Below are positions 12,074 through 12,121 of a stretch of 56,522 nt of DNA, piece by piece. This DNA comes from Escherichia phage PDP46. Numbering within the stretch: the first letter of the stretch is position 1; every line of letters begins with the position of its first letter. Under the pieces are notes generated by a model, which saw only the letters and a list, made by a program, of their open reading frames with translations, ran no database searches and was not told the DNA's origin. The DNA is taken from sequence record PQ783785. One strand, written 5' to 3'. The position numbers and the translations under genes are program-made.

Positions 12074-12121
12074 AATGTTAGTGTGGTCGCTTGCAATGTG
12101 TCAAGAATTATTTTAAACTTC
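12074..12121. promoter_or_regulatory. Conserved promoter copy 6, apparently bidirectional (leftward -35 TTGACA; rightward TTGCAA-17-TAAACT)
   Basis: Motif GCAATGTGTCAAGAATTATTTTAAAC in the 108-bp gap between divergent dut and the gene at 12148. Confidence 0.55.

Follow-up and report, generated by a model that had tools for sequence, protein, structure and literature searches.

Two divergent loci of Escherichia phage PDP46 carry candidate rightward promoters interleaved with leftward early promoters

The window, that is, the whole stretch of 56,522 nucleotides analyzed here (Escherichia phage PDP46, PQ783785), represents approximately the complete genome of a 9NA-like siphophage (Sashavirus/Nonanavirus). 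Its region 11000–14000 is 95–97% identical to the E. coli phages PJ16, 536P12, KarinMuster (Bas82), AVIO78A, and BDX09P1, and ca. 80% identical to the Salmonella phages SP069, 9NA, and Sasha. At the dUTPase locus, the leftward unit beginning with the dUTPase gene is separated by an intergenic gap of 107 bp (12041–12147) from a rightward unit headed by a DUF6378 gene (Table 1). Plus-strand terminators follow the portal gene (10184–10205) and NinH (13294–13317), which makes 12148–13149 a bounded unit that therefore needs a local promoter. At the helicase locus, 170 bp (44357–44526) separate the leftward gene 43613–44356 from a rightward replication operon; with ca. 7 kb of leftward genes ahead of it, this operon needs a local promoter as well. 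Both gaps agree with the ca. 110–170 bp given in the original prediction, which held that a single short element may drive both divergent units.

Table 1. Candidate promoter elements and genes at the dUTPase locus, the helicase locus, and other loci of the window
Feature	Position	Strand	Remarks
dUTPase gene	11537..12040	-	First of leftward unit
Leftward −10 TAACAT	12075..12080	-	18-nt spacer; predicted start ~12068, placed 7 nt past the −10
Rightward −35-like TTGCAA (palindrome)	12091..12096	+	In the leftward promoter's spacer; conserved in alignment A1; TTGTAA in 9NA
Leftward −35 TTGACA (copy 6)	12099..12104	-	Family match; would drive the dUTPase operon
A/T-rich tract upstream of the leftward −35 (AAAATAATTC and flank)	12105..12118	-	UP-like; putative UP-element function judged from position and composition
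Rightward −10-like TAAACT	12114..12119	+	Outer edge of the leftward A/T tract; predicted start ~12126 (CA), 21 nt before ATG
First rightward gene, 211 aa, DUF6378	12148..12783	+	Heads a unit with a 67-aa ORF and NinH, ending at the terminator 13294–13317
Proximal leftward family promoter TTGACA-17-TAAAGT (copy 44406)	44389..44417	-	Reverse pair poor (GTGTAA-17-TACACT, score 6.2)
Distal leftward family promoter TTGACG-18-TAACAT	44451..44480	-	Interleaved with the rightward pair
Rightward −35-like TTGCAA (copy 11)	44467..44472	+
Rightward −10-like TAAACT	44490..44495	+	Predicted start ~44502 (CA), leaving 24 nt to the helicase ATG; TATGAT in 9NA and Klebsiella relatives
Helicase gene (DEAD/ResIII)	44527..46188	+	First in the rightward replication operon, helicase to primase
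TTGCAA-17-TAATCT ahead of gene 46230	46169..46197	+	−10 corresponds to AGATTA on the other strand, within a degenerate copy; second register; kept at the dUTPase locus of four Klebsiella phages
TerL candidate TGGTAAACT	5340-5348	+	Just outside the motif; conserved
Copy 4, TTGCAA-17-TAACAC	8726-8731 / 8749-8754	+	Judged non-functional as a rightward promoter
Portal-gene promoter candidate GTGCAA-17-TAACAT	8756..8784	+	Overlaps extended −10-like TGATATAAC; outside the motif; conserved in all phages examined
Tail chaperone candidate TTGCGT-17-TACTAT	25566-25594	+	Just outside the motif; conserved

Both gaps contain copies of a 22-nt element, AAAATAATTCTTGACGGATTAC, which occurs 15 times in the window, 11 times leftward and four times rightward; two degenerate copies are located at 39502 and 46191. 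Each good copy comprises TTGACR, 17–18 nt, and a −10-like hexamer, and is followed by a gene. Judged from this anatomy, the copies would be early promoters of the host sigma-70 type with an UP-like A/T tract. Some family copies carry a sigma-70 promoter annotation from the depositors of AVIO78A; at the dUTPase and helicase loci, this annotation is leftward in every case. The copies numbered 4, 6, and 11 in the original prediction are those at 8728, 12093, and 44469. The latter two mismatch AAAATAATTCTTGACGGATTAC at three of its 22 positions and belong to the family. They face the dUTPase gene and the 43613–44356 gene with TTGACA-18-TAACAT (12104..12075) and TTGACG-18-TAACAT (44480..44451), respectively, which are the minus-strand TTGAC(A/G) promoters that had been described, and they score 12.6 and 11.3. 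The two copies are 78% identical over 55 nt, with flanks in common. The family element also holds an imperfect dyad about the −35 (TAATTC-TTGAC-GGATTA, e.g. at 12099–12114), either a regulator site or a coincidence.

Read on the plus strand, copies 6 and 11 give TTGCAA-17-TAAACT (12091–12119 and 44467–44495), exactly as originally noted. TTGCAA is its own reverse complement and occupies positions 19–24 of the element, which fall in the leftward spacer. The outer edge of the A/T tract has AGTTTA, which reads TAAACT on the plus strand. The cores 12075–12104 (−) and 12091–12119 (+) overlap by 14 bp and their predicted starts, 12068 and 12126, point apart, which is the layout of an overlapping divergent pair; the geometry at 44451–44495 is the same. 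The opposite-strand −35 hexamers lie only 2 bp apart and the predicted starts ca. 58 bp apart, and two polymerases should therefore be unable to occupy the pair simultaneously. The footprint of RNA polymerase covers roughly −55 to +20; the two footprints would overlap by ca. 50 bp, and polymerase binding at the two promoters is therefore probably mutually exclusive. Just past the predicted rightward start at the dUTPase locus, TCAACGTTAACC (12120–12136) contains the overlapping palindromes AACGTT and GTTAAC, and is conserved in the Salmonella and E. coli phages of alignment A1.

We then asked how far the rightward pair exceeds chance. TTGCAA and TAAACT each match the sigma-70 consensus at four of six positions, including A2 and T6 of the −10, and are spaced by 17 nt. 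With 8 of 12 consensus positions the pair has a sigma-70 shape, if a weak one, and lies below the cut-off of the promoter scan tool (9/12). TAAACT is preceded by TTT instead of TGN at both 12114 and 44490, and the pairs stand outside the extended −10 class TGATATAAT/TGNTAAACT. The pair scores 9.9 bits on a rough sigma-70 matrix derived from general consensus frequencies, whose scores are approximate. Sites scoring at least as high occur at 0.42 per kb per strand in the window, 47 being observed versus 58.7 expected from Markov-simulated sequence, and ca. 60% of the equally scoring sites are intragenic and presumably false, as judged with crude gene calls that misplace several start codons and give reliable distances only where checked by eye. 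The pattern TTGCAA-N16–18-TANNNT is found five times in the window (3.3 expected), and three of these matches end 28–32 nt ahead of a plus-strand ATG. In both gaps the pair is the top plus-strand candidate, the next best scoring at most 6.6. The −10 ends 28 nt before the ATG of gene 12148 and 31 nt before that of the helicase gene; for other candidate rightward promoters the distance is 31 nt (TerL), 32 nt (chaperone), 30 nt (13323 gene), and 31 nt (tape measure). The sequence of the pair alone is thus not beyond chance, whereas its position relative to the gene starts and its conservation are.

The same figures bear on a reading in which the rightward pair is incidental. TTGCAA would then characterize a leftward sub-family by descent (TTGACrCATTGCAA, 18-nt spacer, TAACAT), TAAACT would be nothing but A/T flank, and the rightward genes would be expressed otherwise, the pair having no rightward activity. 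Such a reading gains from the lack of enrichment of equally scoring sites and from the 55-nt similarity between the two copies, whose pairs may go back to one evolutionary event. It also gains from TAAACT being present at the non-divergent copies 1467 and 3574, as the hexamer is at least partly a by-product of the motif's A/T-rich flank, and from the TTGACACATTGCAA subtype, which Klebsiella phages have ahead of a ParB-like gene, where nothing diverges from it. What it fails to provide is a promoter: the helicase-primase operon and the terminator-bounded 12148 unit would both be left without a candidate above 6.6.

Among relatives, 536P12, BDX09P1, AVIO78A, Sasha, SP069, and five IMG/VR contigs all have an unchanged TTGCAA-17-TAAACT at the dUTPase locus, and 9NA has TTGTAA-17-TAAACT with an equal score. 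Alignment A1 shows free variation in the ten bases that border TTGCAA on the left, and retention of both hexamers; GTGTGGTCGC, just outside the pair, is variable among relatives. Because the region is conserved by the family for other reasons, the conservation of TTGCAA is not independent proof. In four Klebsiella phages the gap is shorter and the register is not maintained: the sequence there reads GTGTAA-16-TATAAC, and 16 nt separate its −10 from the ATG. These phages carry another pair, TTGCAA-17-TAATCT or TTGCAA-17-TAATTT, 23 bp to the left, whose hexamers are invariant and whose spacer is variable, and a rightward promoter therefore seems to be kept there, elsewhere in the gap. With the exception of this locus in another register, both partners of the overlapping pairs are conserved as promoters.

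At the helicase locus, TTGCAA-17-TATGAT with a single motif copy is present in 9NA, Carvaje, Kpn BU9, phi_KPN_H2, and five more IMG/VR stretches (a sixth match is 9NA itself and is not counted). TATGAT is a better −10 (score 10.6); 30 nt downstream of it, these genomes have a small ORF and then the helicase gene. The surroundings of these TATGAT-type loci have diverged, yet TTTCAC at the predicted start is retained. An incidental pair does not explain why 9NA and the Klebsiella phages have the better −10. In PJ16 and one IMG/VR contig, another helicase N-terminus is found behind the same promoter and the first ca. 20 nt of the leader. The mosaic junction lies ca. 20 nt past the predicted rightward start (PJ16 L140 ~660–700; L175), and this N-terminus begins with GTG and is of 9NA type. 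The region upstream of the helicase gene in Proteus phage Isfahan lacks the motif family and is uninformative. A search of viral contigs with the 14-mer AAATAATTCTTGAC returned mostly unrelated single matches; the longer pattern worked.

The number of copies at the helicase locus also varies. Sasha-type genomes have two tandem leftward copies 63 bp apart (44406–44494 in the window), whereas 9NA and the Klebsiella phages have one (aligned at L013 43178 and L139 42831). In alignment A2, the single copy of 9NA-type genomes pairs with the proximal copy 44406 of the window, whose reverse pair is lost. The 63 extra bases of Sasha-type genomes bear the TTGCAA copy that adjoins the helicase gene, and in the window the reverse pair is located on the distal copy only. 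The extra stretch looks like a duplication that would have separated the leftward and rightward functions.

A further, independent instance is offered by the rightward family promoter after TerL. Its reverse side reads ATGTAA in 536P12 and 9NA, where no diverging gene is present. In Sasha the same promoter reads TTGCAA-16-TATAAT in reverse (score 11.8), and a homing endonuclease gene lies behind it, its ATG (5134) being 31 nt from the end of the reverse −10. The four substitutions are clustered in 15 nt beside 22 identical bases. The leader of the Sasha endonuclease gene (5134–5193) has in addition a 9-bp inverted repeat, AATCGCCAA...TTGGCGATT, around the ribosome-binding site. Across six genomes, reverse-side scores of at least 9.9 occur only at the dUTPase, helicase, and Sasha endonuclease loci, and all other copies score at most 7.7.

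TTGCAA itself is not a marker of divergence, as it is also found at non-divergent copies without a usable −10. It has no A2 or T6 partner at the portal locus (TAACAC), in a TerL-locus variant (TAACCG), and in a 17211-type variant (TAAAGA), and it is combined with TGAACT or TAAGAA ahead of the Klebsiella ParB-like gene, where no gene diverges. Seven loci have TTGCAA in this register. The three with an adjacent reverse gene all combine it with a −10 that has A2 and T6, and none of the four without such a gene does (Fisher 1 in 35, from a small sample). The GCAAT start of the motif was likewise rejected as diagnostic: it is indeed carried by copies 4, 6, and 11, as had been stated, and the other copies have GTAAT, but GATTGC is common (six of the first ten Carvaje copies listed). 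If the pairs were incidental, both the TGAACT and TAAGAA hexamers of non-divergent subtype members and the emergence of TTGCAA-16-TATAAT in Sasha exactly at the insertion of a reverse gene would remain unexplained, and we regard incidental pairs as unlikely. On balance we favor both rightward pairs being real promoters. Position and conservation suggest that a weak rightward sequence, interleaved with a strong leftward early promoter, really serves the rightward genes.

The palindromic nature of TTGCAA raises a further alternative, in which it would not be a −35 but an operator, and a protein bound to it would modulate the leftward promoter of selected copies. A perfect 6-bp palindrome placed in a promoter spacer, in a family element conserved well past its hexamers, would be in keeping with such a role. 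The palindrome never exceeds 6 bp at any copy, however, TTGTAA at the dUTPase locus of 9NA breaks it, and no regulator emerged as a candidate. The window contains 32 TTGCAA sites versus ca. 17 expected, mostly in coding sequence, which also leaves TTGCAA unsupported as a genome-wide regulatory word. An operator in place of a −35 is accordingly highly improbable.

The original prediction had extended bidirectionality, less clearly, to copy 4, and this part did not hold. Its −10, TAACAC, does not end in the essential T; 9NA, BDX09P1, and Carvaje have no TTGCAA at this locus; and the portal gene has a separate conserved candidate at 8756–8784. The TerL and tail chaperone genes likewise have candidates outside the motif (Table 1). 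At the portal, TerL, and tail chaperone loci the predicted rightward starts are ca. 87–88 bp from the leftward start, and the interleaved arrangement with 58 bp between starts is found at the dUTPase and helicase loci only; the earlier interpretation is therefore partly supported. For copies 6 and 11, position and conservation indicate that one stretch of ca. 45 bp may drive both divergent units. The term 'bidirectional' is appropriate here in the sense of two interleaved promoters with separate −10s and starts ca. 58 bp apart, not in the sense of a shared symmetrical −10. The sequence GTACAGAAC follows the candidate rightward −10 at the TerL (5349–5357) and tail chaperone (25577–25585) loci and is conserved in 9NA, Sasha, and Carvaje. 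The degenerate copies 39502–39523 and 46191–46212 have lost the family −35, yet are conserved in the same three phages. The operons in which they lie run on the opposite strand, and there the copies carry the promoter-like pairs TTGCAC-17-TAGAAT (39536..39508; the gene beginning at 39480 is 27 nt further on) and TTGCAA-17-TAATCT (46169–46197).

The plus-strand late (virion and lysis) genes show promoter-like sequences of a different style. A −35-less extended −10, TGATATAA(T/C), is present at 8774–8782, 13284–13292, and 35899–35907, sitting 39–52 nt before the portal, head-morphogenesis, and lysis-cassette genes. A second form, TGNTAAACTGT, lies ahead of the TerL and tape-measure genes and matches at 5340–5350, 26377–26387, and 27382–27392 (three matches versus 0.18 expected). 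These sequences suggest an early-to-late switch from −35-dependent to extended −10 promoters; as speculation, an AsiA- or gp39-like factor blocking −35 recognition might bring it about. At 13284 the sequence TGATATAAT is directly 5′ of the terminator hairpin 13294–13317, and the head-morphogenesis ATG comes next (13323). Transcripts from upstream are predicted to terminate at this hairpin, and those initiated by this −10 to start within the stem and escape it.

The existence of this second style gives some room for the rightward genes at the two loci to be transcribed from a local promoter other than the TTGCAA pair, at a different position, dependent on a phage factor, or of an unrecognized type such as the late one, and the different register at the Klebsiella dUTPase locus fits with that. 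Neither gap contains an extended −10 motif, however, nor is anything else promoter-shaped conserved in them. The TGATATAA match at 12022 was rejected as the true promoter of gene 12148, since it is located within the dUTPase gene and reads TGATATAC in close relatives. We consider another local promoter a slim prospect compared with the TTGCAA-17-TAAACT pairs themselves.

Overlapping divergent sigma-70 promoter pairs are familiar from ilvY/ilvC, Tn10 tetA/tetR, and lambda PR/PRM, and supercoiling has been described as coupling the divergent promoters of ilvY/ilvC. The phage pairs resemble them in having promoters on opposite strands of a short control region, with overlapping cores and footprints, that would serve two divergent operons under polymerase competition and possibly supercoiling coupling; at the helicase locus, the two operons are both replication operons. 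They differ from the classical pairs in that no regulator site is known here and that one partner comes from a 15-member family of phage early promoters. They also differ in that each promoter has its −35 within the other's spacer or upstream tract, with predicted starts ca. 58 bp apart. The ca. 87–88 bp at the three other divergent loci of the genome is near the spacing of lambda PR/PRM. The early promoters of T4 are likewise present as many copies for host polymerase, conserved past the hexamers and with an A/T-rich upstream tract. The family described here shares with them the multi-copy extended consensus including the A/T tract, and departs from them in the reverse-strand use of particular copies. 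We know of no description of reverse-strand use of extended early-promoter families. None was found for family promoters in the literature searched, which did not include the main genomics paper on the group, and the 9NA genome announcement and the AVIO78A paper make no mention of divergent promoters. A literature text search with part of the motif returned nothing relevant, and the literature searched contained no transcript or 5′-end evidence for any 9NA-like phage.

Another known class comprises the bidirectional promoters of Warman, Grainger, and colleagues, which, by the definition in PMC12825309 (citing Nat Microbiol 2021), share a pseudo-symmetrical −10 and have starts mostly 18 bp apart, with 10 and 23 bp also common. 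Like that class, the present pairs would yield divergent transcription from a short piece of DNA, one polymerase-binding event excluding the other. Unlike it, the −10s (12075–12080 and 12114–12119) are 33 bp apart, the predicted starts are separated by 58 bp, and the shared part is the −35/spacer region, which places the pairs outside the class.

In the arrangement we propose, 12075–12119 and 44451–44495 would each contain two sigma-70-type promoters interleaved back to back. The leftward partner, a member of the conserved early-promoter family, would consist of the UP-like A/T tract, TTGACR, an 18-nt spacer, and TAACAT. The rightward partner would be weaker, with TTGCAA in the leftward spacer, 17 nt, and TAAACT at the outer edge of the A/T tract. 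Starts at ~12126 and ~44502 would produce leaders of ca. 21 nt for the DUF6378-NinH unit and ca. 24 nt for the helicase-primase operon. With its consensus −35 and A/T tract, the leftward promoter should compete with the rightward one and dominate it, and a leftward polymerase, on departing, may stimulate the rightward promoter by the negative supercoiling left behind. More tentatively, the family cassette could be an evolvable two-way module, in which two to three point changes enable a reverse promoter where a gene lies behind; this generalization is possible, though we hold it with considerable doubt. The changes would be TT before GCAA together with A2 and T6 in the flank hexamer, and non-divergent copies would bear disabling variants, e.g. 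TGAACT. Such a module could operate in at least three registers, with the reverse −35 in the spacer, with the reverse −10 on the GATTAC box, or, in relic copies, with the reverse −10 in place of the −35. At the helicase locus, the 63-bp duplication might later have resolved the conflict between polymerases by splitting the two functions.

If confirmed, the interleaved arrangement would assign promoters to the helicase-primase operon and the DUF6378-NinH unit in a poorly studied phage group, for which deposited annotations show just the leftward promoters, and would provide a compact natural combination of a strong and a weak promoter within ca. 45 bp. Natural variants are at hand, including the single versus duplicated element, the TAAACT, TATGAT, and TGAACT hexamers, and the homing-endonuclease insertion of Sasha. 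These could be used to study polymerase competition or supercoiling coupling, or as a small two-way expression part. General principles would be unchanged, the arrangement being of an ordinary compact kind that is already known.

Several other features of the window were observed. The region 21482–21869 is ca. 390 bp of non-coding DNA. It includes two identical direct repeats of 31 nt, at 21543 and 21686, and both contain a GCCGG...CCGGC hairpin. The corresponding position in Carvaje is occupied by a tRNA-Ser, and Rfam and tRNA scans of the window gave no matches. Another non-coding region of ca. 300 bp, 17237–17522, lies between the back-to-back family promoters 17211 and 17523, and 100 nt of it recur at 56418–56517 with 91% identity. 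Repeat families of 25–35 nt are present at both ends of the window (56231–56517 and 1–208). The region 17237–17522 and the window ends are candidates for a pac or origin region. Short-period tandem repeats occur at 41550–41897 (12/18 nt), 4598–4852 (9/12 nt), 55494–55653 (21 nt), and 17768–17839 (21 nt), and at least some of them are intragenic. The one at 41550–41897 is inside the gene of an ssDNA-binding/annealing protein and is annotated as a tandem repeat region in Sasha. A strong leftward promoter-like sequence outside the family, TTGACC-17-TAATAT, is located at 15222–15250, ca. 26 nt before a leftward gene start.
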